From: Candidatus Doudnabacteria bacterium RIFCSPHIGHO2_01_FULL_46_14
GTDB taxonomy: Bacteria; Patescibacteriota; Doudnabacteria; UBA920; 2-01-FULL-46-14
DNA length: 64,000 nucleotides
Assembly (NCBI GenBank): GCA_001779925.1
Contig: MFEK01000014.1
Location: forward strand, 1,011 to 65,010
Direction of reading: 5' to 3'
Shown: positions 15 through 29,466 of the stretch, piece by piece
How positions within the stretch are numbered: position 1 is the stretch's first letter
How the letters are laid out: the number at the start of each line of letters is the position of its first letter
Notes under the pieces: generated by a model
What the model saw: only the letters and a program-made list of their open reading frames with translations
Database searches by the model: none
Told to the model about the DNA's origin: nothing
Made by a program: the position numbers and the translations under genes

Positions 15-3000
15 ATGCATAAACCTAATAGATCTTTTTCACAAAAGGTCTTTGCTGCGGGTTTAGCAGTTACCACTGCTCTCTGGGCCTTTGGCGGCCT
101 GCTCACTGTAGCAGGAGCCGTTGAAGCGCACCCAGCAGGTACTCTCGTTCTCTCTGGAACGACTGTTTGGCATGTATCCGATGATGGAACCATGCGCCAT
201 GGAATTGATTCCCTGGCCAAATTCCTTAGCCATCGCTACAGTTTTGCCAACGTTGTCCCAGCCAATTCTGCTGACCTGGCTTTGCCAGACGGCGGACTTT
301 TGGGATGGGGTTCAGGCGTCCTGTTTAATGATGGTGGTACTGTCTATCAAGTTTCCGGCGGAACGAAGCATGGCTTCACTTCTGCCGCGGCCTTCACAGG
401 CTCTGGCTTCAGTTTTGGCAGCGTTGTTAACGCAAGCCTTGCTGGAGTTACAGCGGGATCAAACATTAGCGACGCATCCATGGCCCACATGGAAGGAACA
501 TTTGTTGTTTCCAGTGGGACCGTTTGGAGAGTTTCGGCCACTGGCCGACAAGGCGTCCCGCAACCGGGAGTCTTGTACTCCTGGGGCGCTGGTTTTGGCG
601 ATGTAGTGGCTGCTAACAGCGCTGACCTTGCTCTGGCAAACGAAGGAAACGCTTCCTTCCGCACCGGAACTTTGGTCAACGATTCCGGCACGCTCTTTGC
701 CGTAACCGCGACCACGAAGCGCGGATTTCCATCAGCTTCCTGCTACACTGGCTTTGGATTCAATTTTTCCACGCCGGTCGCAGGTTCAACTGCCGGTTTG
801 ACCGCCGGAGCTAATTACTGCGCTGACGCAGGCACTCCGACCCCTCCGGGTCCAACACCTCCGCCAGTATCAGCGGGAACAGTATCCGTATCACTCGCGT
901 CTGACACTCCGGCTGCCGGGACCATTGTTGAAAATGCGGCCCGGGTTGGCTTCACCAAAGTCAATTTCACAGCAGGAGCCTCTGACGTGATCATCGATTC
1001 CATGGTTGTGGAGCGCACTGGTATTTCCCAGGACTCCAACTTTACCGACATCATTCTTTTGGATGTCTCTGGCGGTGTTTCAGTCGGAGTTGCTTCCCAA
1101 ATCGGGAATGAAAAGACTCTTGGCTCAACCCACCAGGTAACCTTTGCTGATGACATTACAGTCAAAGCGGGGACAACCAAATCCATCATGCTTGCCGCCA
1201 ACATGTCCGGCACCTTGCAAGCTGGTGAAACCGCTGCCCTGCGATTGGTCAGTGCGACGCCTTCCGGCACAGCAACCGTTTCCGGAAGCTTGCCGATTAC
1301 AGGCAGCACCATGACCATGAATGGCACTCTTGCCATTGGAGCGGTTACTATCGCAGCTGGTTCTCAGAACCCAGCAGCCACGACTCAGCAGGTCGGTATC
1401 AATGATTACATTGTTTCCGGCGTCCGAGTCTCGGCTAACTCTGTGGAAGATATCGAAGTCCAGCAAATGCGCTTCTACCAAAACGGCACTGCTGCTGACG
1501 GCGATGTCAAAGACCTTGAGCTTATGGTTGATGGCGCAGTAATCGCCACGGTCAGCAAACCGACGAGCAAAGAAGCCACCTTCAAACTGGCTACCCCGAT
1601 CGTCATCAAGAAAGGCGAAAACAAAGAGTTCAATGTCCGCCTTGATATAGTCGACGGGTCTTCTCGAACAATCAGTTTTGATTTCGATAAGAAAACGGAT
1701 GTGGTAGCAATAGGCAAGACCTATGCTTATTACATGACTCCGACTTATCCGAACGCGACCTCTCCGTTCTTCAACGCTCCGAACACCACGATTGATTCAG
1801 GCGCTTTGACCTTCTCGAAGGGCGTAGTTGCTTCCCTCAATCTGGCCGAAGGAGTAAACAGTCAGGTTATCGGTGCTTTCAAAACCACTGTCCAAGGCGA
1901 GCCGGTCCAGGTGACCAGACTCGTTTTGAACCTGACCGTTACCGGAACAGGAAATGGCGCTGACCTCACCAACATTGTGGTCAAGGATTCTGCAGGAAAG
2001 GTAGTTGCCGGGCCGATTGACGGCGCGGACAATACCGGCCCTGACGCGGCCACCACAACCGATACGATAATTTTCCCAACGGGAACTAACACGTACACGG
2101 TGGTAGCGAACATGAACACGGATTTTGCCGGCAATGACACTGTCCAGGTCGGTGTTGATGATCCAGACAGCAAAGTCACTGCAAAAGGCACGGTAACTAA
2201 CCAAACCATCACCGCCAACCCAACCTCGACTGTCACTCTCGACACTCTGACGGTAAAGACCGGCTCGATCCTGGTTTCTACCTCCACGACACCGGCTGCG
2301 CAAAACGTACTTGTGGGACAAACCCAGTTTACGTTTGCCAACTTTGTCTTGGATGCCACTTCTTCCGGCGAGGATGTCCGGGTAACCGCTCTGGCGACCG
2401 TCCATAGGGCAGTCAACAGCGACCCGACCAACATCGCGAACCTTACTCTGTATGATGGCACGACAGCGCTTTCACCGATTATTCAGCCAAGCGGCACTGT
2501 CTCTCCTGCAACCTCGACCTTCTCCTTTACGAATCCGATCGTGATTACCAAGGGTAGTTCCAAAACCCTCACGCTCAAGGGAGACATTGTTTCCGGGGAT
2601 GCAGACTCTGATACCCACGCTTTTGGCTGTGAAGGCACAGGCTGTGTGACCGCCACTGGTGCGTCCACCAGCACGGCCATCACTCCGACCGTAACCAGTA
2701 GCACTGGACAAACAATGTCCATCGTCGCTTCCGGTACGTTCACAGTAGGCGCCTCGGGAACTAGCCCGACACAAGGCGCGAACATCACAGGCAATTCCAG
2801 CAAGGTTACTGTGGGCGAATTGCTCTTCACCGCCACTAATGAAGATATTGATTTGACTGAACTGCATCTCGGCGCTACTGCCGTCAACGGCGGCGCGCTT
2901 AACGATGAGTTCAGCATGGTCTATCTGTTCGCGGGTTCAACCCAGGTTGCTTCCGCGTCTCCGACCACGACTAACGTCATTACCTTCCAGAGCCTTGAAG

Positions 3001-3833
3001 GCAAATTCCGCATCTACAAGAACCCGGCTTCCGGACAAAACCTGCTCACCATCAAGGTTGATACTGCCGCTATAACCAACCAGGGCGGCGATGGCAACAC
3101 AGGTGATTCCGGGGACGGCGTAAGCCTAACGGTCGCTGCCGATGCGTATGCCGGTAAAGGCATTGCGTCCGGATCGACAATCTCTGCCGCCAACAAATCA
3201 GGCACCTTCGACGGTCAGCAATATACGGTCTACAAGACCCAGCCGACCTTTGCCAGGGTTCCTCTGTCAACCACTTTGGCTGACGGTGATTTGGGCGTGT
3301 TCGCCTTCTCATTGACCGCTGACGCAAAGGGTGATGTCGGCTTCTACAAGGCCGCCTTTGAGATTTCCACAACGGGTGTGAGCATAACCGACTTCAAACT
3401 CTATGAAGAGTACGGCACATCCAATCAGCAGGATCTCACCACCAACGCGGCGCGCCAATCATCGGGCGAGCTGGCTGCCGGAAGAGACTATATATCCATT
3501 CTCTTGGATACAGGCACTGATGGCGTAGGCCAGGGCGGAGAATTCCGCTTCGTCGGCGCCGGTGTTACTAAGACCTTCCAACTGCGCGGAACAGTGGCTA
3601 ATGCCAGTGCCGGCGACAGTATGAATGTGGTTCTTAGAAACGCCACAGGCGTTGGTACTCACCCAGGCGATGCTGAAACCGTCGCTGATGAGGAAACAGG
3701 CCATTTTGTCTGGTCAGACTTGCACTACGGAAACTCAACACCAACTGCGACCTACACGGCCGAGTGGTTCAATGGGTACCGCGTGCCAGGATTGTCCGCG
3801 ACTTCTACACAGCAATCGCTGTCAAAGTCCTAA
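15..3833 (+). CDS. Giant secreted Thr/Gly/Ser-rich cell-surface (S-layer/adhesin-like) protein, 1272 aa
   Basis: N-terminal signal peptide (MHKPNRSFSQKVFAAGLAVTTALWAFGGLLTVAGAVEA). Three tandem ~80-aa repeats near the N-terminus (GT.V.SGTVW.VS..G...G....LYSWG.GFG.VV.ANSADLAL), then a Pro-rich linker TPTPPGPTPPP. The remainder is a long low-complexity T/G/S/V-rich beta-type region. Single uninterrupted ORF; antisense ORFs in the track are spurious. Confidence 0.75.
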   Translation: MHKPNRSFSQKVFAAGLAVTTALWAFGGLLTVAGAVEAHPAGTLVLSGTTVWHVSDDGTMRHGIDSLAKFLSHRYSFANVVPANSADLALPDGGLLGWGSGVLFNDGGTVYQVSGGTKHGFTSAAAFTGSGFSFGSVVNASLAGVTAGSNISDASMAHMEGTFVVSSGTVWRVSATGRQGVPQPGVLYSWGAGFGDVVAANSADLALANEGNASFRTGTLVNDSGTLFAVTATTKRGFPSASCYTGFGFNFSTPVAGSTAGLTAGANYCADAGTPTPPGPTPPPVSAGTVSVSLASDTPAAGTIVENAARVGFTKVNFTAGASDVIIDSMVVERTGISQDSNFTDIILLDVSGGVSVGVASQIGNEKTLGSTHQVTFADDITVKAGTTKSIMLAANMSGTLQAGETAALRLVSATPSGTATVSGSLPITGSTMTMNGTLAIGAVTIAAGSQNPAATTQQVGINDYIVSGVRVSANSVEDIEVQQMRFYQNGTAADGDVKDLELMVDGAVIATVSKPTSKEATFKLATPIVIKKGENKEFNVRLDIVDGSSRTISFDFDKKTDVVAIGKTYAYYMTPTYPNATSPFFNAPNTTIDSGALTFSKGVVASLNLAEGVNSQVIGAFKTTVQGEPVQVTRLVLNLTVTGTGNGADLTNIVVKDSAGKVVAGPIDGADNTGPDAATTTDTIIFPTGTNTYTVVANMNTDFAGNDTVQVGVDDPDSKVTAKGTVTNQTITANPTSTVTLDTLTVKTGSILVSTSTTPAAQNVLVGQTQFTFANFVLDATSSGEDVRVTALATVHRAVNSDPTNIANLTLYDGTTALSPIIQPSGTVSPATSTFSFTNPIVITKGSSKTLTLKGDIVSGDADSDTHAFGCEGTGCVTATGASTSTAITPTVTSSTGQTMSIVASGTFTVGASGTSPTQGANITGNSSKVTVGELLFTATNEDIDLTELHLGATAVNGGALNDEFSMVYLFAGSTQVASASPTTTNVITFQSLEGKFRIYKNPASGQNLLTIKVDTAAITNQGGDGNTGDSGDGVSLTVAADAYAGKGIASGSTISAANKSGTFDGQQYTVYKTQPTFARVPLSTTLADGDLGVFAFSLTADAKGDVGFYKAAFEISTTGVSITDFKLYEEYGTSNQQDLTTNAARQSSGELAAGRDYISILLDTGTDGVGQGGEFRFVGAGVTKTFQLRGTVANASAGDSMNVVLRNATGVGTHPGDAETVADEETGHFVWSDLHYGNSTPTATYTAEWFNGYRVPGLSATSTQQSLSKS

Positions 3834-3872
3834 GACTCTCTTGATCTAGTCTCTCTTGAGACAGAAAGCAAT

Positions 3873-3910
3873 CCCCCCTCTTCTTGAAAGAAGAGGGGGG
3901 TTGTTTTTTT
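3873..3910 (+). terminator. Rho-independent terminator after the surface-protein gene
   Basis: Perfect GC hairpin CCCCCCTCTTCTT-gaaag-AAGAGGGGGG (3873-3900) followed by TTGTTTTTTT. Confidence 0.8.
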
Positions 3911-3940
3911 GTAAAAATTTTGTTAGATTATTTATTATAC

Positions 3941-4639
3941 ATGCGCAAATACATAAAGATAGTAATAATCATGCTAATAGCGGCTGGCGCTGTGTTTGCT
4001 TTCACCAGACTGAATAAACCTCAGAATGATGAGCCGGATATAGAGGCCATGAAAGACAGCATTGCCGCGGACCCGGCTGTCCGTGCTGACCATCTGAACG
4101 CCGAACAGATTGAACAACGGCTGGCGCAGTTCCGTACGGCCAGGGATCAGGTGGTGGCAGCCAATTTTGACTCTTTGCAAGGAATTAACGAGATCGCGCT
4201 TCTCAAACAGCAATTAGGCGATTTTGAGGGCGCGAGAATCGCCTGGGAATACGCGAACATCATCCGTCCGAAAAACTCTTTGTCGTTTTCCAACCTCGCG
4301 GCTCTTTATCATTTTGATCTGAAACAGTATGACAAGGCTGAGAAAAATTATCTCATCTCCATTGCCAATGATCCGGACGACATCCCGACTATCCGCAATT
4401 TTTTTGAGCTATATTATAATGCAATCAAGGATAATGCAAAAACGGAAGCCTTGCTTTTGAGATCAATACAGAACAACCCTGATCGCAGTGATTTGTATGC
4501 TCTGGCCGGCGGTTTTTATCGGGATACTGGCAACATTGGCAGAGCGCTTGAATATTTTAAAAAGAGTTTGGAAATCAGTCCAAACAATGAAGCTGTGAAA
4601 AATGAAATCATCCGGCTGGAAGCCCAAAATAAGCAGTAA
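3941..4639 (+). CDS. TPR-repeat protein with N-terminal membrane anchor
   Basis: ATG at 3941 (MRKYIKIVIIMLIAAGAVFAF = TM helix); the track's TTG start at 3884 lies inside the terminator hairpin. TPR-like periodicity (ALLKQQLGDFEGARIAWEYANI..., LYALAGGFYRDTGNIGRALEYFKKSLEI). Confidence 0.6.
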   Translation: MRKYIKIVIIMLIAAGAVFAFTRLNKPQNDEPDIEAMKDSIAADPAVRADHLNAEQIEQRLAQFRTARDQVVAANFDSLQGINEIALLKQQLGDFEGARIAWEYANIIRPKNSLSFSNLAALYHFDLKQYDKAEKNYLISIANDPDDIPTIRNFFELYYNAIKDNAKTEALLLRSIQNNPDRSDLYALAGGFYRDTGNIGRALEYFKKSLEISPNNEAVKNEIIRLEAQNKQ

Positions 4640-4641
4640 AA

Positions 4642-6078
4642 TCAGTTTGGTTTCAGATAAACCAGCCTTAGGACATTCCCAGAGTAATCGGTTCGAATAT
4701 TTTCCAGAATCGATTCTGGCAGGTTCAGTTTTTTGAATGCTTGCTGCTCGATGACGACATATGACCCCGCCGGAATGTTCTGTCCATTTTTGATGAGTTC
4801 AAAACTCCGTTTGTTGCTGTAAAAGCTGATCGTATCCCAATAGTCGTATTCAAAAGCGTAGATTTTTTCCACATCGGTTTTCGTTGCCAAAAAGCGGCCA
4901 ACACCTCTTTCATCTTCAGAAATAGACTGGTTCACAGCCAGCTGTTTTTGTTTATTAAATCCGACATAGAGGGCGTTGGTAAATCCCGCAGTGAGCAGAA
5001 GGAATATTACAAAATAATATTTAGTGATATGAACCGCCTTGGCGCGGGCTAAAGAATCTGTAGCTAGAAGGCCGAGAAACAGAGCCATGAAGGGAATTGC
5101 TGGGATGGTATAGTAGAAGAGCTTTGTTCCTGCAGCAGCAAAAACCGTAAAGATAAATACCGCACTGCAGCCGAGCGCAAGGGCTTCTTTTTTTCGGCCA
5201 TTTGTTTTTAGCAGAGCAGTAGGTAAAGCAAGCAAACCGAGGCCAAAAAGAGCAAACCAGGGAAATTCGAAAAGAAAAGAAAATTTGAAATAGTTCCAGT
5301 TGGAAACTGCTTGTCCTCCGCCGATGACATTTTCACCAAATCGGCCAAGTACATGGTGTATAAAATATTCCTGCCAAAAAGCGCTGCCAAATTTTACAGT
5401 TTCGTATAAATGCCACGGCAAAATGATCGCGAGTCCCGCAAACCCTCCGAGCCAGAAATATTTGTTCTTTAGCCAGGAAAAATTTTTGAAAATGATTGAC
5501 CAGATCAGAATAGCCGGAAAAGCATAAAATCCAATAATGCTTTTAAACATTATGCCGACAGCAACACCGATACCTATTCCGATCAGCCACTTTGGATTTT
5601 TTAAGCCGCAAAGAAATGAGTAAAAAGAAAACATAATTGCCACAGTAACCGGAACATCGAGGCGCACCTGCCGTCCGGCAACGATCAGCGCGCCCATAGT
5701 TAAAAACATCAGACCGGTAACCAGGCTCATGAATTTATCTTTTGTTATTTCCCAGGCTAGCAGCATGATCAAAATAATTCCGGCGATGGAGAACAGGCTC
5801 GAAGGCAGGCGCAGAGAGAATTCGTCGAGTCCAAACATTTTTGATGAAATCATAGCCAGCCAGAAATACAGCGGCGGCTTTTCAAACCAGGGATTTCCGA
5901 GATGTTTAAGGGTTAATGGATCGGTGCCGGAGACGGTTTCCCTCACAACTTTTGCATAAATCGCTTCGTCATAGTCCTGCAGCGCGGGCTTGCCGAGTCC
6001 TGTAAGAAAAATTATCGAAGCCAAAATTCCAACACCTAAAAAAGCCAAAAGATAGCGTTTTTCCGGACTAATTGGCAT
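4642..6078 (-). CDS. GT-C fold membrane glycosyltransferase, PMT/ArnT (GT39/GT83-like) family
   Basis: About 11 predicted TM helices. N-terminal loop motif YDEAIYA (the DE motif of the PMT/ArnT family). C-terminal soluble domain. Confidence 0.6.
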   Translation of the reverse strand: MPISPEKRYLLAFLGVGILASIIFLTGLGKPALQDYDEAIYAKVVRETVSGTDPLTLKHLGNPWFEKPPLYFWLAMISSKMFGLDEFSLRLPSSLFSIAGIILIMLLAWEITKDKFMSLVTGLMFLTMGALIVAGRQVRLDVPVTVAIMFSFYSFLCGLKNPKWLIGIGIGVAVGIMFKSIIGFYAFPAILIWSIIFKNFSWLKNKYFWLGGFAGLAIILPWHLYETVKFGSAFWQEYFIHHVLGRFGENVIGGGQAVSNWNYFKFSFLFEFPWFALFGLGLLALPTALLKTNGRKKEALALGCSAVFIFTVFAAAGTKLFYYTIPAIPFMALFLGLLATDSLARAKAVHITKYYFVIFLLLTAGFTNALYVGFNKQKQLAVNQSISEDERGVGRFLATKTDVEKIYAFEYDYWDTISFYSNKRSFELIKNGQNIPAGSYVVIEQQAFKKLNLPESILENIRTDYSGNVLRLVYLKPN

Positions 6079-7159
6079 GGTAAATCAGTTCTTGATAAAC
6101 ATTTTCTGTTTTTTCAATCATCCTTGCGAGCGTGAACTGCAAGGACTTTTGTTTGGCGTTTTCCCCAAGACGCCGGGCGAGAATAGGGTCGCTTAAAATT
6201 TTGATAACAGCCTCAGCGAGAGCTTGAGGATTTTTTGGCGGCACCAGGATTCCAACCGCAGTTTCCTCCCCCCCTGTGGGGGAGGTTAGGTGGGGGGTAA
6301 GCATCTCAGGAACCCCTCCCACATTCGTAGAAACAATCGGTAATCCCGCTCGCATAGCTTCGAGAATCGTGTAAGGAAAACCCTCTTTGATCGAGGAGCA
6401 GGCATAAATATCAAACGTGGGAAGCAGTTGTGCCGCATCTGATACGCCGCTCACGATTTTTAGCTGCGCATTTGGAAAGTCAGCTTCGACAATTTTAAAT
6501 GCGGCCCGCAGGGTTTTGAGATCTTTGGTCGGATAGTCATGGGCAATCGTGCCGATGGTGATTTTTCCCTCCCCAGGCGTGGGGAGGGTGGTCGTTAGGC
6601 CGGGAGAGGTCGCAATCCCATTATGAATCGTGACGAGCTTTTCCTGCTTGGACAATTTGTCGGCTATAGCTGATTTTCTGTCAAATTCAGAGACAGTAAT
6701 AATTTTATTTCGAAATATTGAAGCTAATTTTTCCGCCCAGAAATAAATTTGTCTCACTAGAAAAGAGTTCGGTTCTAAAAATGCAAAGCCGTGAGCTGTG
6801 AACAAGACTGGTTTTCCAGCCAGCCAGCCTGCAAAACTGCCGATCACTCCGGCTTTGCTCGAGTTGAGATGCACAATATCTGGATCAAGCTCCCTGATCA
6901 GTTTTTTTAATTCCCAAATCGCGAGAAAATCCTTTAATGGGTGAATATTTCTGACGAGATTTCGGACTTTGAAAACCCGATATCCCTGATTCCCCAAAAT
7001 TTTCGACAAAGTTTCCGCATCATTGCCAATGGCTGCGAGGATTTCGTATCGATTCTTGTCCAAATTTGTAGCCAGATCAAAAACATAGCGCTGAGCGCCG
7101 CCCATCTCGCCTTGGGTGATTATTATGAGAATTTTTATCTTTTTGCCATTTTGACTCAT
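6068..7159 (-). CDS. Glycosyltransferase family 4 (GT-B)
   Basis: GT4 C-terminal signature E..GFPYTILEAMRAGLPIVSTNVGGVPEML. Contains two in-frame GC-rich palindromic inserts. Overlaps the downstream GT-C gene by 11 bp. Confidence 0.8.
   Translation of the reverse strand: MSQNGKKIKILIIITQGEMGGAQRYVFDLATNLDKNRYEILAAIGNDAETLSKILGNQGYRVFKVRNLVRNIHPLKDFLAIWELKKLIRELDPDIVHLNSSKAGVIGSFAGWLAGKPVLFTAHGFAFLEPNSFLVRQIYFWAEKLASIFRNKIITVSEFDRKSAIADKLSKQEKLVTIHNGIATSPGLTTTLPTPGEGKITIGTIAHDYPTKDLKTLRAAFKIVEADFPNAQLKIVSGVSDAAQLLPTFDIYACSSIKEGFPYTILEAMRAGLPIVSTNVGGVPEMLTPHLTSPTGGEETAVGILVPPKNPQALAEAVIKILSDPILARRLGENAKQKSLQFTLARMIEKTENVYQELIYHAN
6263..6300. repeat. In-frame GC-rich palindromic element copy within GT4 gene 6068..7159
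   Basis: CCTCCCCCCTGTGGGGGAGGTTAGGTGGGGGG. Its reverse complement matches copy 10741-10770 (CCCCCACCTAACCTCTCCCCTCAAGGGGGAG). Encodes TPHLTSPTGGEE in the gene frame. Confidence 0.7.
6565..6590. repeat. Second in-frame GC palindrome within GT4 gene 6068..7159 (linker region)
   Basis: CCCTCCCCAGGCGTGGGGAGGG. Encodes LPTPGEGK on the minus strand. Confidence 0.6.
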
Positions 7160-7282: not shown

Positions 7283-8113
7283 ATGCATGACAAGCATAAA
7301 ATCGGCATCGTGGGCGGTGGTGTGGTCGGCGGGGCAGTAAAGAACTTTTTCACGGAAGCCAAAGTCTACGATAAATATAAGAACCTTGATTCAATTGAAG
7401 AAGTAGCTTCCGCGCGCTTCATTTTTATCTGCGTGCCAACGCCCTTTGAAAATGGCCTGGATTTATCAATGGTGGACGACGCGGTAGCGAACGTTGTGTC
7501 TCACCTCGCGGACCCGGAAAATCAGCTTGTTGCTATCAAATCAACCGCCTGGCCGGGAACCACGCAAAGCTACCAAGATAAATATCCTGAGGCCAATTTT
7601 GCTTTTAATCCCGAGTTTCTTCGCGATAAAACTGCGAACGAAGATTTTATAAACAATGACCGGCAGATTGTGGGGTATACGAGCAAAACCAAAGACAGCC
7701 CCCTCGTGAAAGAGCTTTTGGAGATTCTACCGCGCGCGCCTTATGAAAAGATCATGCCCGCTGTAGACGCGGAAATGATTAAATATGCCGGCAATACTTT
7801 TTTGGCGCTTCAGGTGATTTTTGCCAATCAGGTTTTTGACATTTGTGAAGCTTCGGGGATCAGCTATGAGCAGGTGAAAGAAGCGGTGAAGGCGGACAAA
7901 CGAATTGGTAAAACGCACTGGGAGGTTTTTCATACAGAATCAAGCCTAGCCGCAAACATCAGTGATGCGTATCGCGGCTATGGAGGGAAATGTTTCCCCA
8001 AGGATATCAATTCGCTTATCCATGAAGGCCAAAAGATTGGAGTGGATGTGTCGCTCTTTGAGGTGGGCCGCGAGGTTAACCTCAAGCTAAATGGAGGCAA
8101 ATATGACAAATAA
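7283..8113 (+). CDS. UDP-glucose/GDP-mannose dehydrogenase-family protein, short form lacking the C-terminal UDP-binding domain
   Basis: GIVGGGVVG NAD fold; IKSTAWPGTT; FNPEFLRDKTANEDFINNDRQIVG; catalytic-Cys motif GYGGKCFPKD. Ends about 25 aa after that motif. Confidence 0.7.
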   Translation: MHDKHKIGIVGGGVVGGAVKNFFTEAKVYDKYKNLDSIEEVASARFIFICVPTPFENGLDLSMVDDAVANVVSHLADPENQLVAIKSTAWPGTTQSYQDKYPEANFAFNPEFLRDKTANEDFINNDRQIVGYTSKTKDSPLVKELLEILPRAPYEKIMPAVDAEMIKYAGNTFLALQVIFANQVFDICEASGISYEQVKEAVKADKRIGKTHWEVFHTESSLAANISDAYRGYGGKCFPKDINSLIHEGQKIGVDVSLFEVGREVNLKLNGGKYDK

Positions 8114-8909
8114 GCCTTCTTTCAAAATCGCCATTGTCGGCGGGGGAGCGGTCGGCAAGGCCATTTCGGCGTATTACGGGCGGGTAAAAATCTACGATAA
8201 ATATCATCCGGTGGATTCGCTTGATGAGGTCTGCGATGCTGATTATATCTTCGTGGCTGTGCCTACGCCATTCGATGATGCCAAAGGCCAGCCGGATTTA
8301 ACAGAAATGGATGATGTTCTGACAGTACTTGCCAAAAATATGAAACGGCCGGCCGAACAGGTGGTAATCATCAAATCAACAGTGTTTCCCGGAACAACCC
8401 ATGGTTATCAGGAGAAATTTCCCAGTCTAAATCTGATTTTCAATCCCGAGTTTTTAACGGAAAAGACAGCGGTTGAAGATTTCGCCAGGCCTGACAAACA
8501 GCTCGTGGGTTTCACATCCAAATCCGTCGAGTTTGCAGAAAAGGCGATGAGCATCCTGCCGCGGGCGCCTTACGAAAAGATCATGCATGCCAGGGCTGCA
8601 GAAATGACTAAATATGTTATCAATACCTACTATGCTTTTAAGGTTATATTCGGTAATTCTATTTATGATCTATGCCAGAAAACCGGCGCTGATTACGATC
8701 AGGTGCGAGAGGGTTTGGTGCGCGATAAGCGAATCATTGATTCTCATTTTGACGTTTTGCACGGCGGATATCGCGGTTACGGCGGCAAATGCCTGCCAAA
8801 AGATGTGAAGACCCTTGCCTGGTTTGGCAGCAAAAACGGCAAGCCCGTAAAATTTATCGAAACTATTATTAAACTGAACGAAAAACTGGCATGGCAAAAG
8901 CACTTGTAA
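8103..8909 (+). CDS. Second tandem UDP-glucose-dehydrogenase-family paralog, also a short form
   Basis: FKIAIVGGGAVG, IKSTVFPGTT, FNPEFLTEKTAVEDFARPDKQLVG, GYGGKCLPKD. ATG at 8103 gives a small overlap with the previous gene. Confidence 0.7.
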   Translation: MTNKPSFKIAIVGGGAVGKAISAYYGRVKIYDKYHPVDSLDEVCDADYIFVAVPTPFDDAKGQPDLTEMDDVLTVLAKNMKRPAEQVVIIKSTVFPGTTHGYQEKFPSLNLIFNPEFLTEKTAVEDFARPDKQLVGFTSKSVEFAEKAMSILPRAPYEKIMHARAAEMTKYVINTYYAFKVIFGNSIYDLCQKTGADYDQVREGLVRDKRIIDSHFDVLHGGYRGYGGKCLPKDVKTLAWFGSKNGKPVKFIETIIKLNEKLAWQKHL

Positions 8910-9805
8910 CCGGCGGCGCGGGGTTCATCGGCTCGCATATCGCGGATCGACTGATCAATGATGGTCATGAAGTAATCATTCTTGATAATTTTTCGACTGG
9001 CAAAAGAGAGAACGTAAATCCGAAAGCCAAACTCGTGGAATGTGATATTGCTGACTATGAGGTGATAGAGCCACATTTTGAAGGAGTAGAAGTAGTGTTT
9101 CATACGGCAGCGTTAGCGCGCATTACACCATCGGTGAAAGACCCCCTTCCTTCGCACGCCGCAAATGCCACAGGCACTCTGAATGTTTTGTGGGCGTCAA
9201 AAAATGCTGCCGTAAAAAAAGTTGTTTACTCCTCAACCTCTTCTATTTACGGCGACCAGGAGATTGAAGACTATCCACTCAGTGAAACTCTGGAGCCGCG
9301 ACCGGGCAGTGCTTATTCAGCGCAGAAATATATGGGTGAGTTGTATTGTAAATTATTTAATAAATTTTACAAGCTTGATACAGCAATCCTGCGGTACTTT
9401 AATGTTTATGGTCCACGCCAGCTCACAGAGGGCGCTTATGCAACAGTTATTGGTATATTTATCAAGCATCGCGAACAAGGGAAACCAATGACTATCGTGG
9501 CTGATGCAGGAGAAAGGCGCAGAGACTATACTCATATTTCAGATGTGGTGGAGGCCAACATTTTTGCATGGCATGCCCAGATTCCCAGAGGTGAATTGTT
9601 TAATATCGGCTGCGGTAAAAATTATAGTGTTAATGAAGTAGCTGCTATGATCGGCGGTCCCACGGAAAAAATTGATGCGCGTCCTTGGGAGTATCAAATT
9701 ACCTTAGCCGACAATTCTAAGGCAAAAGAATTACTCGGTTGGGAGCCGAAAATAAGTTTTGAAGAGGGGATTGCGGAATTAAAAAAAATACACAACCTGG
9801 AATGA
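8891..9805 (+). CDS. NAD-dependent nucleotide-sugar epimerase/dehydratase (extended SDR; UDP-GlcA decarboxylase / 4-epimerase-like)
   Basis: VTGGAGFIGSHIADRL Rossmann motif, catalytic YSAQKYMGE (YxxxK), about 304 aa. Confidence 0.8.
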   Translation: MAKALVTGGAGFIGSHIADRLINDGHEVIILDNFSTGKRENVNPKAKLVECDIADYEVIEPHFEGVEVVFHTAALARITPSVKDPLPSHAANATGTLNVLWASKNAAVKKVVYSSTSSIYGDQEIEDYPLSETLEPRPGSAYSAQKYMGELYCKLFNKFYKLDTAILRYFNVYGPRQLTEGAYATVIGIFIKHREQGKPMTIVADAGERRRDYTHISDVVEANIFAWHAQIPRGELFNIGCGKNYSVNEVAAMIGGPTEKIDARPWEYQITLADNSKAKELLGWEPKISFEEGIAELKKIHNLE

Positions 9806-9806
9806 C

Positions 9807-11015
9807 ATGGATAAGCCGCGCATTTTAATTTTCAGCATTGCATATGAGCCGCTGGTGGGCGGAGCAGAGCTGGCGATCAGGTACATTACTGATCGCATTT
9901 TTGATTATGAGTTTGATTTGATCACCGTGCGTTTCGACCGCGCGCATCCGAAACAAGAAAAAATCGGCAATGTCAATGTTTACCGGGTCGGTTTTGGCTC
10001 CAGACTGGGAAGGCTATTGTATCCGGCTTTCGCCCTTCGCCTCGCAAAAAAACTTCACAGCAAACAGAATTACCAAATCACCTGGGCAATAATGGCTGCA
10101 TACGCTTCTGCGGCAGCGCTCATGTTCCAAAGGCGTTTCCCGACTGTAAAATTTTTATTAACTCTTCAGGAAGGGGATACCATCGAACACATCCACAGTC
10201 GGGTAAAAGGATTTAAAAAGGTTTGGCAACAATCATTCAAAAAAGCTGACTATATACAGGTAATCAGTAAATTTTTGGCCCAATGGGCAGTCAAAGAAGG
10301 CGCGACTTGTCCGGTAGAGGTGGTGCCGAATGGGGTCGACTTAGAAAAATTCAAAATTCAAAACTCAAATGTCAAAATTGCAAATCAAAATTCAAAATTT
10401 ACTATCATCACAGCTTCGCGGTTAGTGCATAAGAATGGAATAGATATTTTGATTCATGCTGTTTCTAAACTTCAGACTTCAAACTTCCAACTTCAAATCC
10501 TCGGCGCTGGGCCAGAAGAAGCAAGATTGAAAAAACTAGCCGCAGATTTGAAAATCGCAGATCGCATTGAGTTCCTCGGCAACATTTCTCAGGAAGAGCT
10601 GCCTAAATATTTGTCGGAGTCGGACATTTTTGTGAGACCCTCACGCTCGGAAGGCTTAGGCACGGCTTTTTTGGAAGCTATGGCTGCAGGTTTGCCGATT
10701 ATTGGAACTCCTGTCGGCGGCATACCTGATTTCCTCCACCCCCACCTAACCTCTCCCCTCAAGGGGGAGAAAAATGCAGAGAAGTCCGGTATTATTCCCC
10801 TCCCTCGAGGGGAGGGTGAACCAAATGGATTATTTTGTAAAGCTGATGACCCCGCTGATCTAGCTGAGAAAATCAAAATACTGATGCAAGATTCCGACTT
10901 GAGAAAGAAATTAGGACAAAATGGGAAAAGACTAGTAGAAGAGCAATATTCCTGGGATATAGTGGACGGGAAGATGAAGGGGATTTTTAGTAAAATTTTA
11001 TATTTTAAATTGTAA
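9807..11015 (+). CDS. Glycosyltransferase family 4 with a 30-aa in-frame repeat-element insert
   Basis: GT4 motif EGLGTAFLEAMAAGLPIIGTPVGGIPDFL followed by the insert HPHLTSPLKGEKNAEKSGIIPLPRGEGEPN, then GLFCKADDP.LAEKI. Low-complexity linker KFKIQNSNVKIANQNSKF. Confidence 0.8.
   Translation: MDKPRILIFSIAYEPLVGGAELAIRYITDRIFDYEFDLITVRFDRAHPKQEKIGNVNVYRVGFGSRLGRLLYPAFALRLAKKLHSKQNYQITWAIMAAYASAAALMFQRRFPTVKFLLTLQEGDTIEHIHSRVKGFKKVWQQSFKKADYIQVISKFLAQWAVKEGATCPVEVVPNGVDLEKFKIQNSNVKIANQNSKFTIITASRLVHKNGIDILIHAVSKLQTSNFQLQILGAGPEEARLKKLAADLKIADRIEFLGNISQEELPKYLSESDIFVRPSRSEGLGTAFLEAMAAGLPIIGTPVGGIPDFLHPHLTSPLKGEKNAEKSGIIPLPRGEGEPNGLFCKADDPADLAEKIKILMQDSDLRKKLGQNGKRLVEEQYSWDIVDGKMKGIFSKILYFKL
10347..10400. 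repeat. A-rich CAAAAT-type low-complexity repeat inside GT4 linker (arm 1 of an inverted pair)
   Basis: AAAATTCAAAATTCAAAACTCAAATGTCAAAATTGCAAATCAAAATTCAAAATTT. Confidence 0.5.
10733..10822. repeat. In-frame GC-rich palindromic element (about 90 bp) within GT4 gene 9807..11015
   Basis: CCTCCACCCCCACCTAACCTCTCCCCTCAAGGGGGAG...CCCCTCCCTCGAGGGGAGGG. Two hairpins. Encodes HPHLTSPLKGEKNAEKSGIIPLPRGEGEP. Confidence 0.75.
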
Positions 11016-11048
11016 TTTTGCATTTTGATTTTTCAATTTTGAATTTCC
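11013..11048. repeat. Inverted copy (about 85% identical) of the 10347-10400 repeat, intergenic
   Basis: TAATTTTGCATTTTGATTTTTCAATTTTGAATTTCC is the reverse complement of AAATTCAAAATTGAAAAATCAAAATGCAAAATT. Confidence 0.5.
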
Positions 11049-11049
11049 T

Positions 11050-12723
11050 ATGACCAAGCTTCAAAAACAATTACTCGCCGGCATTTTATTGCTTGCAGCT
11101 GTGCTGATTTTTTTCCGGCTCACGCGGCACGACCCACTCGGCGATGACGCGCATTATTCTTTCCGCGCAATAGGTTATTTTGATTATCTTGGTTCCAAAG
11201 AGCAGACCACGCCCGTGCAGTGGTTCGGACACCGGCCAGCCTGGTCGTATCTGTCATTCCACGATCATCCGCCCCTGGTGTTTTTGATCCAGCATATTTT
11301 TTTTAGTATTTTCGGGGTGTCGTTGTTTGTGTCTCGTTTGCCGTCGGCCCTGGCCGCCCTGGGCTCGGTATTGGTCATATTTTTTATAGCCAAGCGCCTG
11401 GCTGGCCCCAAAGCCGGGCTGGCCGCCGCCCTGGCTTTGGCTGTAAACAATTATTTTATCTGGACCGGGCGAATCGCTCTTCTCGAAAGCGTCTTTATTT
11501 TTTTCCTGCTCCTGTCTTTTCTATATTTGCTGAAAACGTTTGAGGATTCGAAATATTTTATTCACACCGGTCTTTTTTTCGGCCTGAGCTTGCTTTCCAA
11601 ATATACCGTGCTGTTTATCCTGCCTGCGGTGCTTTTGTTTCTGGTCTGGAAGCACCGATGGATTTTTAAAAATAAAAGATTCTGGCAGGGAATGATGGTA
11701 TTTTTGGTTTTGTGCCTTCCCGTGGTGATTTATAATCTCATGATGTTCAAAACTCGGGGCCATTTCGACGTGCAGTTTGCGGATTTATTCGGGCAGGTTC
11801 ATAATGACTGGCCGAAACTCGCAATGCGAATCAGCAAACCTGATCCGAATTTTTTGGGCGTTTTGACCACGATAGCCGATGGTTTTTCTTGGCCTTATTT
11901 TGCGGCGTTTATTTTGAGCATTTTTTTCAGCCTGCATCTGGCCAGACGCGCTGCCGCAGTCTACCTTTTTGTTTTCGCGGCAGTGTCCTTGTTTTTCTTT
12001 TTTGCCTTTGCCGGCGGAGCTGTCCGGTGGATGGGAGTGCTGGCGCCTTTTGCGGCCCTGCTCGTTGGTTTGGCAGCTGCGGCGTTTGCAGAGCGTAAAA
12101 AATATCTTGCCGCCGCCGTAGCTATTCCGTTTGCCGTCTTTTCAATTTTTTATACATGGAACACCAATCATCTGAAGCGCCCGGTCGCAGGCCCGAATTG
12201 GTATGCCGGATTTCGTTTGGAAAATTACGGGTACAATCAGCTCGACAAGGAAATCTCAAAACTGCTCACTGGCAAAAAACCAACGCCGAAAATTAAATAC
12301 GCGACGACCCAATGGTGGTACCGCGATCTTGATGAAAAAGCAATCGAGTTCCCTATCATTAATCAAGGGGCAGGAGTTTTCGGCTCAGCGATTATCGTTG
12401 ATTCCGAGCACATCTGGTTTCCTATGTATTGGGCCAAAGAAAAATGGAAATTCTATCACCGATTTTCCATTAAAACCTCAAACGAGTTTTTGCAGGTTGT
12501 TGATGCTAAGGGCGGACTCGAGATTATCAATTTTGTGCAGTTTGATAAAATTTACTATTTTAAATCCGGCCCGCGGATCAGGGAGACCGCTGATTTGAAA
12601 TATGAGGGATCTGATCCGCTTTTTGAAGCGATTCTAAAAAAAGGGATCTTACCCAAAATCATTTATGACGACCAGGGCAATGAAGCGTTTTATATGTATG
12701 AAACAAGCGAGCTGGCCATATGA
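11050..12723 (+). CDS. GT-C fold membrane glycosyltransferase (PMT/ArnT-like), second paralog
   Basis: Polytopic membrane protein, N-terminal loop DDAHYSF (DE motif). Ends with TGA that is the first base triplet of junction element J1. Confidence 0.55.
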   Translation: MTKLQKQLLAGILLLAAVLIFFRLTRHDPLGDDAHYSFRAIGYFDYLGSKEQTTPVQWFGHRPAWSYLSFHDHPPLVFLIQHIFFSIFGVSLFVSRLPSALAALGSVLVIFFIAKRLAGPKAGLAAALALAVNNYFIWTGRIALLESVFIFFLLLSFLYLLKTFEDSKYFIHTGLFFGLSLLSKYTVLFILPAVLLFLVWKHRWIFKNKRFWQGMMVFLVLCLPVVIYNLMMFKTRGHFDVQFADLFGQVHNDWPKLAMRISKPDPNFLGVLTTIADGFSWPYFAAFILSIFFSLHLARRAAAVYLFVFAAVSLFFFFAFAGGAVRWMGVLAPFAALLVGLAAAAFAERKKYLAAAVAIPFAVFSIFYTWNTNHLKRPVAGPNWYAGFRLENYGYNQLDKEISKLLTGKKPTPKIKYATTQWWYRDLDEKAIEFPIINQGAGVFGSAIIVDSEHIWFPMYWAKEKWKFYHRFSIKTSNEFLQVVDAKGGLEIINFVQFDKIYYFKSGPRIRETADLKYEGSDPLFEAILKKGILPKIIYDDQGNEAFYMYETSELAI

Positions 12724-21309: not shown

Positions 21310-22410
21310 ATGCATCAATACGGCATTGATATAAATACGCTGGAGAAATTCATTACCAAGCCCCAGGCAGAAGAAAAGGACTGGGGACGGTTTTGTGTGG
21401 CTGTGGATTTGCCGGAGTACCGCCTCGAGCAGTATGAGATTTCTGCCGGTAAATCTTGCGAGCTGCAGACTGCACGCGGGCATGAGGTCACGATTTTTGT
21501 GGAGAGCGGAGTAGTGCGCGTGGACGACATAGAACTTACAGCACAGGAACTGGTGTCCAGTGAAGGCAGGCTTGTTATCATGGCCAAGGAAGACTCGATT
21601 GTCTACGCGTTTCATGGGCCGGCAGAGTATGGCAGCGTGTATCATCAGAAATCTAAGACTTCTGATTTTCGTGACAAATATTGGGGCTCGATCGAAACTA
21701 TTGTGAGTCGCGATTACGCGGCCAAGAGGCTAGTCGTAAGAAAAGAGCGGCACGCGAGTTTTGAGTACCACTGCCGCAAATTGGAAAGTTATTTTATTCA
21801 TTCGGGTAAACTACTTCTCCGTAATAGAGCGGGTCGCGGCGAGGATCGGTATTTTGAACTCGAAAAAGGGACTGCGACGATCACGCCGCCGGGACTCATG
21901 CACCAGCGGGGGGGATTGGAGGACACTGTTATCATTGAAATCTCCACGCGCGACGAGGACGGTGATTCGTATCTTGTGGAGGACGGCGCAAAACTACCCA
22001 TGCCCCGCCTCCGCCAAGGCTACGGCGGGCTGGATCGAGGTTCAGAGGAATATAAGGGCCGCAGGATTTGTTTTGATATTGATGGAGTCCTGCGCACTCA
22101 GACAGACGGCGATTATGAGAATGCCCAGCCAATCAAAGAGGCGATTGATTTCATAAACAAACTTTATAACGAAGGCTTTTGGATCACCCTTTATACCTCG
22201 AGCTTTATGGGACGTGCCAAAAATGATCAAAAAGCCGCGTACGAGGCAGGATTTGCATTTAATAAAAAACAGCTGGCTGGTTGGGGCGTAAAATACCACG
22301 AGCTGTTTATGGGCAAGCCGCCGACAGATTTGTTAATCGATGATCGGGCGTTATTTTACAATCAAGATTGGGCAGTGATTGAAAAGGAAATTCGGAGCAA
22401 GCTTCAATAA
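21310..22410 (+). CDS. Bicupin - HAD-like phosphatase fusion protein
   Basis: Two cupin-type beta-barrel segments (…GHEVTIFVESGVVRVDD…; …SYFIHSGKLLL…GTATITPPGLMHQRGG…). C-terminal HAD-type domain with CFDIDGVL (DxDG) and GKPPTDLLIDDRA. Confidence 0.5.
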   Translation: MHQYGIDINTLEKFITKPQAEEKDWGRFCVAVDLPEYRLEQYEISAGKSCELQTARGHEVTIFVESGVVRVDDIELTAQELVSSEGRLVIMAKEDSIVYAFHGPAEYGSVYHQKSKTSDFRDKYWGSIETIVSRDYAAKRLVVRKERHASFEYHCRKLESYFIHSGKLLLRNRAGRGEDRYFELEKGTATITPPGLMHQRGGLEDTVIIEISTRDEDGDSYLVEDGAKLPMPRLRQGYGGLDRGSEEYKGRRICFDIDGVLRTQTDGDYENAQPIKEAIDFINKLYNEGFWITLYTSSFMGRAKNDQKAAYEAGFAFNKKQLAGWGVKYHELFMGKPPTDLLIDDRALFYNQDWAVIEKEIRSKLQ

Positions 22411-22411
22411 C

Positions 22412-24100: not shown

Positions 24101-24101
24101 T

Positions 24102-24842: not shown

Positions 24843-24844
24843 CT

Positions 24845-26585: not shown

Positions 26586-26633
26586 GAATCTGATATAATT
26601 GACAATCAAAACATTCAGGATTAGGATAATCAT

Positions 26634-26870: not shown

Positions 26871-27009
26871 GATTGCAAAAGGAGACCGTACAGATACAAT
26901 CAAAGCCTGCAATCTTATTTGGGGATGATAGGTCACAGCGATGGTTACGATCTCAGCATAGTCTTAAAGAATAACTTTTTCATACCTCGCGAGAAACGGA
27001 AATAACAAG

Positions 27010-29450: not shown

Positions 29451-29466
29451 AATTAGAATATTGATT

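Follow-up and report, generated by a model that had tools for sequence, protein, structure and literature searches.

The window analysed here, a 64-kb stretch of DNA, opens with the gene of a large Thr-rich secreted protein, followed by a TPR gene and by glycosyltransferase genes. What is this protein, and are the neighbouring glycan genes connected with it? The preliminary description saw a candidate heavily O-glycosylated surface protein beside its own glycosylation machinery. The surface half of that proposal gained support, as ORF 15-3833 very probably encodes an S-layer (surface-lattice) protein of an uncultured ultra-small Doudnabacterium. The parts of the gene are as follows.

15..3833, + strand: ORF of the large secreted protein, 1272 aa
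15..128, + strand: signal peptide, residues 1-38, with a basic n-region, the hydrophobic core FAAGLAVTTALWAFGGLLTVAGA and likely cleavage after AVEA
129..833, + strand: four ~58-aa repeats, A-B-A-B, residues 39-273, a putative cell-wall anchor (unit alignment, AlphaFold)
834..866, + strand: Pro/Thr hinge TPTPPGPTPPP, residues 274-284 (pLDDT <50)
867..3686, + strand: six tandem ~155-aa beta-sandwich (Ig-like) units, residues 285-1224 (AlphaFold, self profile alignment), starting at approximately 867, 1332, 1797, 2262, 2727 and 3192
3687..3833, + strand: conserved C-terminal tail FVWSDL...WFNGYRVPGL and stop codon, with an invariant Trp and a W-x-N-G motif

The 1272-aa protein is 100% identical to Ca. 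Doudnabacteria OGE78098.1 / A0A1F5NKF4. The signal peptide described earlier was recovered as a helix at residues 6-27 with low pLDDT in AlphaFold, and it is kept in full-length homologues. The mature protein is acidic (pI 4.62), with a mass of 125 kDa and few cysteines (4). The N-terminal repeats had been counted as three of about 80 aa; alignment and AlphaFold resolved them instead into four units (residues 39-98, 99-157, 158-215 and 216-273), each consisting of three strands, a helix and a strand, with pLDDT >90 across the repeats. The Pro-rich hinge was found as described and is the protein's sole linker of the classical O-glycosylation type. In relatives, poly-T, (TP)n or PPVIT linkers occupy the same position.

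The composition (T 13.8, G 11.4, A 11.3, V 9.4 and S 9.4%) agreed with the earlier account of more than 900 residues dominated by T, G, S, V and A, but it does not by itself support the abundant O-glycosylation sites deduced from it. This part is neither low-complexity nor mucin-like. Structure prediction, which had been suggested as a check, gave six all-beta units with a mean pLDDT of 90.9, and self profile-profile alignment at shifts of 154, 308, 462 and 619 residues showed the units to be homologous (prob 97.5-100%). Only three S/T runs of four or more residues occur in the protein. Since the Thr-rich part consists of folded beta-sandwich units, Thr-richness alone is no evidence for O-glycosylation sites. 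In the body alignment W949, W967, N969 and G970 were invariant or nearly so. A Foldseek search of the body against PDB returned generic Ig/macroglobulin-domain arrays, with no solved S-layer protein among the 50 matches listed, and no sequence relatives of the protein were found in PDB.

The same structure predictions gave EccB1 repeat domains as the top PDB matches of the N-terminal repeats (3x3n, E=1.4e-5, prob 0.98), and EccB1 repeats are similar to the wall-binding PlyCB (PMC4769845). Other lineages carry 'GDLIK' repeats that are homologous to these (hhalign prob 88%, E=2.8e-6). In many relatives PF01471 PG_binding_1 stands in place of the repeats, and this exchange for a peptidoglycan-binding domain marks the N-terminus as a putative wall anchor to which the repeats would contribute wall binding.

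The family is very large and confined to Patescibacteria. It comprised 2,935 clusters (50% identity) at E<=1e-30, and it was present in at least 397 GTDB species, all patescibacterial-type MAGs. The window protein as query gave 285 matches and a Kaiserbacteria member more than 1000 at E<=1e-50, all of them unnamed or annotated 'peptidoglycan-binding protein'. Six units and a length of ~1130-1300 aa were strictly conserved throughout. The S-layer reading is supported by the signal peptide, the swappable N-terminal module, the P/T linker, the six Ig-like units, the acidity, the few cysteines and the large Patescibacteria-only family; lattice formation itself is presumed.

Haloferax volcanii csg, an archaeal protein with a C-terminal lipid anchor and both N- and O-glycosylation, is likewise acidic and Thr-rich, though it differs from the window protein, with its putative N-terminal wall-binding module. 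According to Johnston et al. (bioRxiv 10.1101/2024.05.28.596244), csg and a patescibacterial family described from lattice modelling each have six Ig-like assembly domains, arranged in a left-handed spiral that gives p6 hexagonal pyramids. In that model the C-terminal domain lies at the pyramid tip, and AlphaFold-multimer modelling of that family, not of the window protein, gave confident hexagonal spiral pyramids. Our family matches the preprint's "six Ig-like domain" S-layer protein and had on this match already been predicted. They agree in phylum (including Doudnabacteria), length class, signal peptide, six Ig-like units and many members across patescibacterial classes, with PG-binding-domain relatives that are secreted and top-expressed. 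The two families are equated by architecture, size, taxa and anchor domain, not by an accession or alignment link. The examples listed there are A0A1G2EN61 (Nealsonbacteria, 1131 aa), A0A1F5NRV7 (Doudnabacteria, 1264 aa), A0A0G1WWP5 (Kaiserbacteria, 1173 aa) and GMX59286.1 (1185 aa); A0A1F5NKF4 itself is not among them. Homologues were reported there to rank within the top five secreted proteins by expression in two species, and Kuroda 2024 found PG-binding domains on top-expressed secreted proteins. S-layers have been observed on CPR cells in the literature. The available part of the preprint makes no mention of an exchange between EccB-like and PG-binding anchors, of a conserved TPR partner or of glycan loci nearby.

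On this reading the protein would be exported via Sec and tethered to the wall by its four EccB/PlyCB-like repeats. The short hinge would space the anchor from the lattice-forming part, and the lattice would be built by the six Ig-like units with the Trp-rich tail. Instead of a lattice subunit, the protein could be a multi-Ig adhesin or fibril, anchored in the wall, with which an epibiont attaches to its host. Most CPR bacteria are episymbionts, Kuroda et al. read PG-binding-domain proteins as possible host-attachment factors, and Foldseek placed Ig-like domains of PrgB, an adhesin (8beg), among its top matches. We nevertheless consider an adhesin improbable. Domain number and length stay constant in thousands of lineages whose hosts differ widely, whereas the repeat number of adhesins usually varies, and an N-terminal PG-binding or own-wall anchor suggests self-attachment. 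The modelled assemblies of the matching family (10.1101/2024.05.28.596244) also point to a lattice.

The genes that follow bear on the second question.

3873..3900, + strand: intrinsic terminator after the S-layer gene, 12-bp stem with 8 G-C pairs, then the T tail TTGTTTTTTT
3941..4639, + strand: small membrane-anchored TPR protein, 232 aa (Pfam TPR_2/TPR_8 and related), one N-terminal TM helix
4642..6078, - strand: ArnT-like GT-C glycosyltransferase, 478 aa (PF13231 73.8 bits, PF02366 50 bits)
6068..7159, - strand: GT4 glycosyltransferase (Pfam Glycos_transf_1, Glyco_transf_4), sharing 11 nt with the GT-C gene, in one transcription unit with it
7283..12723, + strand: two truncated NDP-sugar dehydrogenases, an epimerase/dehydratase, a GT4 and a second PMT_2 GT-C; first part of a glycan island

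The strong terminator and the TPR membrane protein were both confirmed. A near-consensus promoter was found ~330 nt upstream of the S-layer gene at locus L001 of the same genome, and in the loci of six relatives, retrieved by protein identity, roughly 490-650 nt lay between the S-layer gene and the called gene before it. The S-layer gene would be a monocistronic unit bounded by its terminator. According to the gene calls the TPR protein probably starts at ATG 3941, not at TTG 3884; its predicted topology is N-in with a single TM helix and the TPR domain outside.

Synteny was counted over 42 species-level loci, with TPR, PMT_2 and glycan genes scored within 9 kb downstream of the S-layer gene. 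A TPR gene was present downstream in 41 of 42 loci (33 within 1 kb) and in 7/7 loci fetched by protein identity. The earlier proposal to look for co-occurring GT-C genes gave the opposite picture, with a PMT_2 gene in only 3 of the 42; at the matching position this GT-C was also absent from the closest relative with a long contig (60% identity). Across loci the TPR protein is the conserved companion of the S-layer gene. By analogy with the TPR partner or domain of S-layer O-oligosaccharyltransferases, it may be an assembly or handover factor.

The convergent GT-C and GT4 genes lie on the strands described before, but the likeness of the former to protein mannosyltransferases was not upheld. 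Judged by its sequence, the GT-C is ArnT-like and not recognisable as a protein O-mannosyltransferase. It has ~8 TM helices (a crude hydropathy count), and ArnT 5ezm was its sole PDB match (E=3e-19), the DE..YA and FEKPP motifs lining up between the two. It shares with ArnT (GT83) and Pmt (GT39) the GT-C fold, a first outer loop bearing a DE motif, and the FEKPP motif, yet falls far under both equivalog cut-offs of NCBIfam (ArnT 94 bits against 567, Pmt 30.8 against 800), and the Pfam search reported no MIR or PMT_4TMC domain. Lipid A synthesis is not known from CPR bacteria, so the acceptor of ArnT is not expected here. The minus-strand GT4 recurs at the same position in relatives. The two genes are the first of a glycan island reaching ~63.7 kb, nearly all of the window, which holds three recognisable GT-C enzymes (one YfhO-like, at 61455-63755) and two GtrB/ArnC/PgfS-like GT2 enzymes, each with two C-terminal TM helices. 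The Und-P-sugar synthase-like GT2s and the YfhO-like GT-C recall streptococcal O-glycosylation by PgfS/GtrB and YfhO-type GT-C (PMC12041528).

Glycan genes were found downstream of the S-layer gene in 17 of the 42 loci and upstream in none. Wzy_C or PMT_2 followed a repeat-type anchor in 11/13 loci and a PG-binding anchor in 1/31 (Fisher p=1e-7, kinship ignored), and the lineages with repeat-type proteins tend to be related. The enrichment goes with the type of anchor and not with how rich the linker is in S, T and P. Some relatives have the order S-layer-TPR-Wzy_C, and in the relatives' loci L004, L005, L006 and L008, as well as in 8 of the 42 species-level loci, a small TPR lies beside or is fused to the Wzy_C enzyme. 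This resembles sgsE-wsaA(TPR)-wsaB(Wzy_C O-oligosaccharyltransferase) of Geobacillus stearothermophilus and WsfB of Paenibacillus alvei (PMC2943079), where a monocistronic S-layer gene likewise adjoins a glycan locus. The window differs in having a GT-C in that slot and no Wzy_C in its 64 kb; neither a WsaP-type initiating phosphoglycosyltransferase nor a flippase or Wzm/Wzt ABC exporter was found among its scanned ORFs. In the family, moreover, the TPR gene accompanies the S-layer gene even without Wzy_C nearby (33/42 loci).

We propose that the island and the repeat-type anchor are coupled in function. Our preferred but tentative reading is that the island may build or decorate a wall glycopolymer bound by the repeats. 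In Firmicutes, SLH domains bind pyruvylated SCWP (with csaB) and CWB2 domains bind PSII (Clostridioides difficile); anchoring-polymer genes are linked to the S-layer gene, and N- or C-terminal anchor modules are swapped between lineages. The present family shares the swapped modules and the preference of Wzy_C/GT-C for one anchor type, but its anchor has an EccB/PlyCB-like fold in place of SLH or CWB2, and no pyruvyl transferase was seen. We regard as likely the explanation as a whole, comprising an S-layer subunit with repeat tether and lattice body, its TPR partner and the coupling to a glycan island. The alternative, somewhat less likely, is that island enzymes O-glycosylate the hinge or the S-layer protein. 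Because the enrichment tracks the anchor, the locus is no less likely to serve an anchoring polymer than to glycosylate the protein.

A narrower model, built on the original proposal, has the GT-C and GT4 O-glycosylate the Thr/Ser-rich protein on the outer side of the membrane, with a polyprenol-phosphate sugar as donor, as in actinobacterial Pmt or streptococcal Pgf/GtrB-PgtC2. It draws on the downstream bias of glycan genes, the sgsE-like gene order of relatives, the P/T-rich hinge, the two GT2s predicted to make such donors, the three GT-C enzymes of the island, and the O-glycosylation of S/T-rich regions by monoderm GT-C enzymes (PMC12041528). We consider it unlikely and the role of these two enzymes not established. 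Against it stand the ArnT-like GT-C, far below the Pmt model, the rarity of PMT_2 near S-layer genes, the lack of Wzy_C in the window and of initiating and export functions among the scanned ORFs, and the location of most Thr within folded beta-sandwiches; PG-binding-type relatives, too, have longer and S/T/P-richer linkers yet no neighbouring Wzy_C/GT-C. More unlikely still is that the proximity is meaningless, an inherited gene order in a small genome. No glycan gene lay within 9 kb downstream in 25 of the 42 loci, and the association with anchor type may reflect shared ancestry of repeat-type lineages. The strong asymmetry between downstream and upstream argues otherwise. The content of the neighbouring locus (Wzy_C, PMT_2 or GT4 sets) also varies while its position beside the TPR gene is constant, a pattern that favours selection for keeping the genes linked over a frozen gene order.

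Five features are central to the analysis. They agree with the preliminary description, whose coordinates and gene content were largely correct and whose strong terminator behind the large ORF was recovered:

15-3833, plus strand: ORF of the large protein, 1272 aa
3873-3900: terminator, 12-bp stem with a T tail
3941-4639, plus strand: TPR protein, 232 aa, ATG start
4642-6078, minus strand: GT-C, matching Pfam PMT_2 and PMT
6068-7159, minus strand: GT4, overlapping the GT-C gene by 11 nt

The start of the TPR protein follows the gene callers on the same genome and replaces an earlier TTG start at 3884.

The large protein was identical to OGE78098.1 (UniProt A0A1F5NKF4), from a Candidatus Doudnabacteria MAG. 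It is rich in Thr, Gly and Ser, as had been reported (T 13.8, G 11.4, A 11.3, V 9.4 and S 9.4%), and the G+C content of its gene (53%, against about 45% in the rest of the window) is probably a consequence of the Thr/Gly/Ala-rich composition. Residues 1-38 form a predicted signal peptide with a basic n-region and a hydrophobic core (helix 6-27 in the model), which is also kept in the homologues. The mature protein is acidic (125 kDa, pI 4.62) and has four Cys. The N-terminal repeats, previously counted as three units of about 80 aa, were resolved by alignment of the units into an A-B-A-B set of four units of about 58 aa (residues 39-273), each predicted as three strands, a helix and a strand (pLDDT >90). 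They are followed by an 11-residue hinge that is disordered in the model (TPTPPGPTPPP, residues 274-284) and by an all-beta array (residues 285-1272, AlphaFold mean pLDDT 90.9). Aligning the family profile to itself with hhalign gave off-diagonal matches shifted by 154, 308, 462 and 619 residues (probability 97.5-100%), and the body thus consists of six homologous units of about 155 aa. It ends with a conserved tail of about 50 residues that contains invariant Trp residues. BLASTP of the protein against itself detected no internal repeats, and the profile self-alignment was needed to reveal them.

The Thr-rich region had been read as a stretch of unstructured O-glycosylation sites. A mucin-like, disordered and heavily glycosylated region was rejected, since the region is predicted to be confidently folded. 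The protein contains only three runs of four or more S/T residues and is therefore not mucin-like. Eight D-[ST]-[AILVMT] sites were found, but this motif belongs to O-glycosylation in Bacteroidota and has no interpretive value in Patescibacteria. Neither the whole protein nor its N-terminal repeats matched a significant family in Pfam or NCBIfam; a match to K1-lyase_N (E=0.02) was too weak and was taken as noise. A profile search of PDB sequences yielded no related chain. Foldseek matched the body to generic Ig-like and macroglobulin-domain arrays only (TM scores ≤0.22), and no solved S-layer protein was among the PDB matches listed.

Homologues of 1130-1300 aa were found throughout Patescibacteria. 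Searching with the window protein gave 285 matches, and with a Kaiserbacteria member more than 1000 at E≤1e-50; among 1.84 billion representatives, 2,935 clusters (50% identity) matched at E≤1e-30. At least 397 GTDB species representatives from many candidate phyla and classes carry a homologue, labelled Portnoy-, Yanofsky-, Giovannoni-, Kaiser-, Falkow-, Komeili-, Kerfeld-, Taylor-, Lipton-, Yonath- and Roizmanbacteria, among others. In the databases the homologues are named “hypothetical”, “peptidoglycan-binding protein” or “beta strand repeat-containing protein”.

The family has very probably already been identified as an S-layer family by Johnston et al. in a 2024 preprint (10.1101/2024.05.28.596244), in which lattices were modelled with AlphaFold-multimer and a putative patescibacterial S-layer protein was obtained by scanning a Nealsonbacteria genome. 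According to the preprint, this protein forms hexagonal spiral pyramids in the model, its homologues are among the five most expressed secreted proteins in two species, and the tabulated proteins span 1131-1274 aa, including A0A1F5NRV7 from Doudnabacteria (1264 aa). The window protein likewise has a signal peptide, a six-unit Ig-like body and homologues across patescibacterial classes. The two families share architecture, size, taxa and anchor, and it is highly probable that they are the same. None of A0A1F5NRV7, A0A1G2EN61, A0A0G1WWP5, A0A1F4NSF7 and GMX59286.1 was among the 30 proteins from three cluster look-ups. The multimer models of a p6 hexagonal lattice, as presented there, concern other family members, and high expression is known for homologues in two Paceibacteria, not for the window protein. 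In the expression study, these highly expressed homologues are described as having peptidoglycan-binding domains (PMC10936435), and electron microscopy shows S-layers on CPR cells. We conclude that the large protein very probably serves this Doudnabacterium as its S-layer subunit, in agreement with the surface role first suggested for it. As the outermost structure of CPR/Patescibacteria cells, the S-layer is their interface with hosts, phages and the environment. In a group with almost no cultures, knowing the S-layer gene, its wall anchor and its partner in Doudnabacteria provides targets for metaproteomics, for the interpretation of cryo-ET and for recombinant work.

Several genomes additionally carry partial-body paralogues of 275-592 aa beside the full-length gene. 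In the relatives' loci, they were located at L008 21164-22456, L010 691-2466, L011 13072-14583, L014 6888-8126 and 12505-14004, and L051 10455-11279. These may be minor lattice components, or kin of a three-domain S-layer protein to which the preprint refers.

While the body is conserved, the 130-300 residues ahead of it vary by lineage and are of two kinds, either repeats or a PF01471 PG_binding_1 domain (P0047, for instance, scores 38 bits with that model, whose cut-off is 23). The repeats are in turn of a Doudnabacteria type and a “GDLIK...VY...KR” type, which are homologous to each other (hhalign probability 88%, E=2.8e-6). Behind either kind of anchor comes a linker of the P/T, poly-T or PPVIT type. 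Among solved structures, the window's repeats best matched the EccB1 repeat domains (3x3n, E=1.4e-5, probability 0.98). In the study that solved this structure, the domains were judged to resemble the wall-binding PlyCB subunit, and it was suggested that they may bind peptidoglycan (PMC4769845). Foldseek searches of the N-terminus against viral models returned uncharacterised actinophage proteins only, and no wall-binding domains of phage lysins. The strongest argument for an anchoring role is that a bona fide peptidoglycan-binding domain takes the place of the repeats at the same position. We infer that the repeats tether the protein to the wall of the cell that makes it, and the EccB1-like structure predicted for them fits the wall-binding role about which the preliminary description had wondered. 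In Doudnabacteria-type proteins, two nearly invariant Cys lie inside the fourth repeat (C243, nt 741-743, and C269, nt 819-821); a disulfide between the two probably staples this last repeat.

To describe the gene neighbourhood, we examined seven loci chosen by protein identity and, from GTDB genomes, 80 species-level loci whose genes were annotated by means of HMMs derived from the window and the first loci. Only species loci with 9 kb or more of sequence downstream of the S-layer gene were counted, 42 in all. The small TPR protein was found downstream in 41 of these, at less than 1 kb in 33, and is therefore the conserved partner of the S-layer gene. In the window it has one N-terminal TM helix preceded by R-K-x-x-K, from which the TPR domain is predicted to face outward. 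Glycan genes were less regular: GT4 was present downstream in 14 loci, Wzy_C proteins in eight (700-815 aa, many of them TPR fusions and many encoded as tandem pairs) and PMT_2 GT-Cs in three, with at least one of the three classes in 17. None of 42 loci had these gene classes within 9 kb upstream. A GT-C, whose co-occurrence in relatives the earlier reading had proposed to check, was thus not conserved beside the S-layer gene, and a PMT_2 gene immediately behind the TPR gene is a peculiarity of the window's genome. At its position, a 60%-identical relative (163-kb contig) has a minus-strand GT4 only, and more distant relatives have Wzy_C genes. Synteny thus moves the focus away from the PMT-like enzyme, which is not conserved, to the near-universal TPR protein and to the anchor type, which tracks the glycan locus.

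The GT-C itself scored above the Pfam thresholds for PMT_2 and PMT, but both models also cover ArnT-like enzymes. It reached only 30.8 bits with the NCBIfam Pmt model NF058602 (cut-off 800), and 94 bits with the ArnT model NF009784, below the equivalog cut-off of 567. Its sole match among PDB sequences was ArnT (5ezm, E=3e-19), with which the DE..YA and FEKPP motifs align, and Pfam detected no MIR or PMT_4TMC module in it. Failing the Pmt score and having ArnT as its nearest solved relative, it could not be classed as a protein O-mannosyltransferase (Pmt, GT39). The GT-C belongs to the ArnT/PMT superfamily. Thus, of the glycosylation machinery proposed for this locus, the GT-C and GT4 genes stood, the PMT assignment did not, and a role in glycosylation is unproven.

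The neighbouring genes could act on the S-layer protein itself or on the wall to which it would be attached. Glycosylation has precedents. In streptococci, PgfS/GtrB and YfhO-type GT-Cs O-glycosylate disordered Ser/Thr-rich regions (PMC12041528). The window similarly encodes a polytopic YfhO-like GT-C (61455-63755, 766 aa) and GT2 synthases with two C-terminal TM helices each (32952-33920 and 37051-37998), which scored 222-243 bits with NCBIfam PgfS and 141-170 bits with ArnC, all below cut-off, and could supply sugar donors. Given this precedent and the YfhO-like gene, protein glycosylation is mechanistically possible in this organism. The slg cluster of Geobacillus stearothermophilus, near which the S-layer gene sgsE is located, encodes a TPR protein, WsaA, ahead of WsaB, an O-oligosaccharyltransferase of the Wzy_C type; in WsfB and PglL the TPRs are fused (PMC2943079). 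The order S-layer gene, TPR, Wzy_C (with TPR) and GT4 in CPR relatives resembles sgsE-wsaA-wsaB, and fused TPR-Wzy_C proteins occur in these relatives. The window shares the TPR gene (3941-4639), but a Wzy_C gene beside the S-layer gene is found only in relatives (the 8 of 42 loci). The only disordered Ser/Thr-rich region of the large protein is its 11-residue P/T hinge, and longer poly-T or TP linkers occur mostly in relatives that have no neighbouring GT-C genes. We consider it rather doubtful that the S-layer protein is glycosylated by an enzyme of the island, the sugar-metabolism genes filling most of the window. That the adjacent GT-C and GT4 do so specifically is more improbable still.

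Assigning an anchor type to each locus and comparing it with the downstream genes gave a different association. Wzy_C or PMT_2 followed repeat-type anchors in 11 of 13 loci, against 1 of 31 for the PG_binding_1 type (Fisher p=1e-7, ignoring kinship), and shared ancestry could produce part of this signal. The idea that S/T/P-rich linkers accompany neighbouring Wzy_C or GT-C genes was refuted, as PG-binding-type relatives had longer linkers with a higher share of these residues (median 19.5 aa, 60% S/T/P), compared with 14 aa and 34% for repeat-type anchors. Extracytoplasmic glycan transferases thus track the kind of anchor and not the amount of glycosylatable linker. This is expected if the locus builds or decorates a wall polymer bound by the repeats, as with SLH and CWB2, the Firmicutes anchors that bind wall polymers made by linked loci. 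By this analogy, the locus may make the anchoring polymer, a reading that we hold tentatively and at slightly less than even confidence.

Taken further, an anchoring polymer would be part of a general scheme, unlikely as a whole, in which one universal scaffold of six Ig units is attached in two interchangeable modes. PG_binding_1 would bind peptidoglycan directly, and EccB/PlyCB-like repeats would bind a dedicated wall glycopolymer. The genes for this polymer would lie beside the S-layer gene, with Wzy_C-TPR, ArnT-like GT-C and GT4 sets performing synthesis or ligation, and the small outward-facing TPR protein would be an obligatory assembly factor, a role that is not known from any S-layer system. 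If true, the EccB-type repeat would for the first time have a class of ligand assigned to it, and the envelope architecture of a nearly uncultured phylum would be defined. The near-universal TPR partner, the exchange of EccB-like and PG-binding anchors and the link between anchor type and glycan locus seem to be new.

Upstream of the S-layer gene, a near-consensus promoter (TTGACA-17-TATGAT, 11/12) was found at 921-949 of L001, the locus from the window's own genome, some 330 nt ahead of position 15 of the window. Its position implies a leader of about 330 nt, and S-layer genes typically have long leaders. The gap to the preceding called gene was roughly 490-650 nt in six relatives' loci (L003-L008). 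Of 58 species loci, 19 encode an ECF sigma factor and a DUF5667 protein directly upstream, and almost all of these have repeat-type anchors. The loci listed for this pair are L005, L006, L008-L014, L017-L021, L023, L024, L029, L036, L044, L058, L061, L065 and L077; L084, with the pair on the opposite strand, is an exception of the PG-binding type. PG-binding-type loci have an ECF sigma gene about 6 kb upstream instead, and in the window's genome the upstream gene encodes TonB_C (L001 359-742). Genes for bAvd, an accessory protein of diversity-generating retroelements, lie less than 10 kb from the S-layer gene in two relatives (L004 19156-19506 and L008 1528-1872); none was seen in the window.

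From 4.6 to about 63.7 kb, the window is devoted almost entirely to glycan metabolism. This island encodes eleven GT4/Glycos_transf_1 proteins, three GT2 (one epimerase-fused), two PMT_2 GT-Cs, the YfhO-like GT-C, a GT9 heptosyltransferase accompanied by a kinase, a cytidylyltransferase, a phosphatase, a transaldolase and a transketolase, and aminotransferases, short-chain dehydrogenases (SDRs) and methyltransferases. The second PMT_2 GT-C (11050-12723) had no PDB match. Together with a 686-aa protein that has about 10 TM helices and belongs to no family of Pfam or NCBIfam (50633-52693), the two PMT_2 and the YfhO-like proteins make four polytopic candidate extracytoplasmic transferases. A dedicated HMM and Pfam detected no Wzy_C in the 64-kb window. 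Neither an initiating phosphoglycosyltransferase, a flippase (Wzx) nor an ABC exporter (Wzm/Wzt) was found among the approximately 49 ORFs of 150 aa or more that were scanned with Pfam; smaller ORFs and a few further ones could hide a transferase or exporter.

Two tandem NDP-sugar dehydrogenase-like genes (7283-8113 and 8091-8909; 276 and 272 aa) encode the N-terminal and central domains without the C-terminal UDP-binding domain. Their best NCBIfam match was a nucleotide-sugar dehydrogenase subfamily, below cut-off, and the same gene or genes lie beside a minus-strand GT4 in the loci of distant relatives (L003-L006). Genes at 22379-33000 resemble a nucleotide-heptose(-like) route, although LPS is not expected in this bacterium: class II aldolase, HAD phosphatase, transaldolase, PfkB kinase, an RpiB-cytidylyltransferase fusion (24845-25741), GT9 heptosyltransferase (27022-28026), GMC oxidoreductase and a split transketolase. 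The 3′ end of a GT2-epimerase/dehydratase fusion (58410-60236, 608 aa) overlaps a sugar C-methyltransferase ORF (Methyltransf_13/14, 60001-61458) by about 235 nt, and the TTG start of the latter is probably wrong. A PIF1-like helicase with a C-terminal HTH_40 also lies inside the island (54777-56441), flanked by ORFs without families, and this region may be a small mobile insertion.
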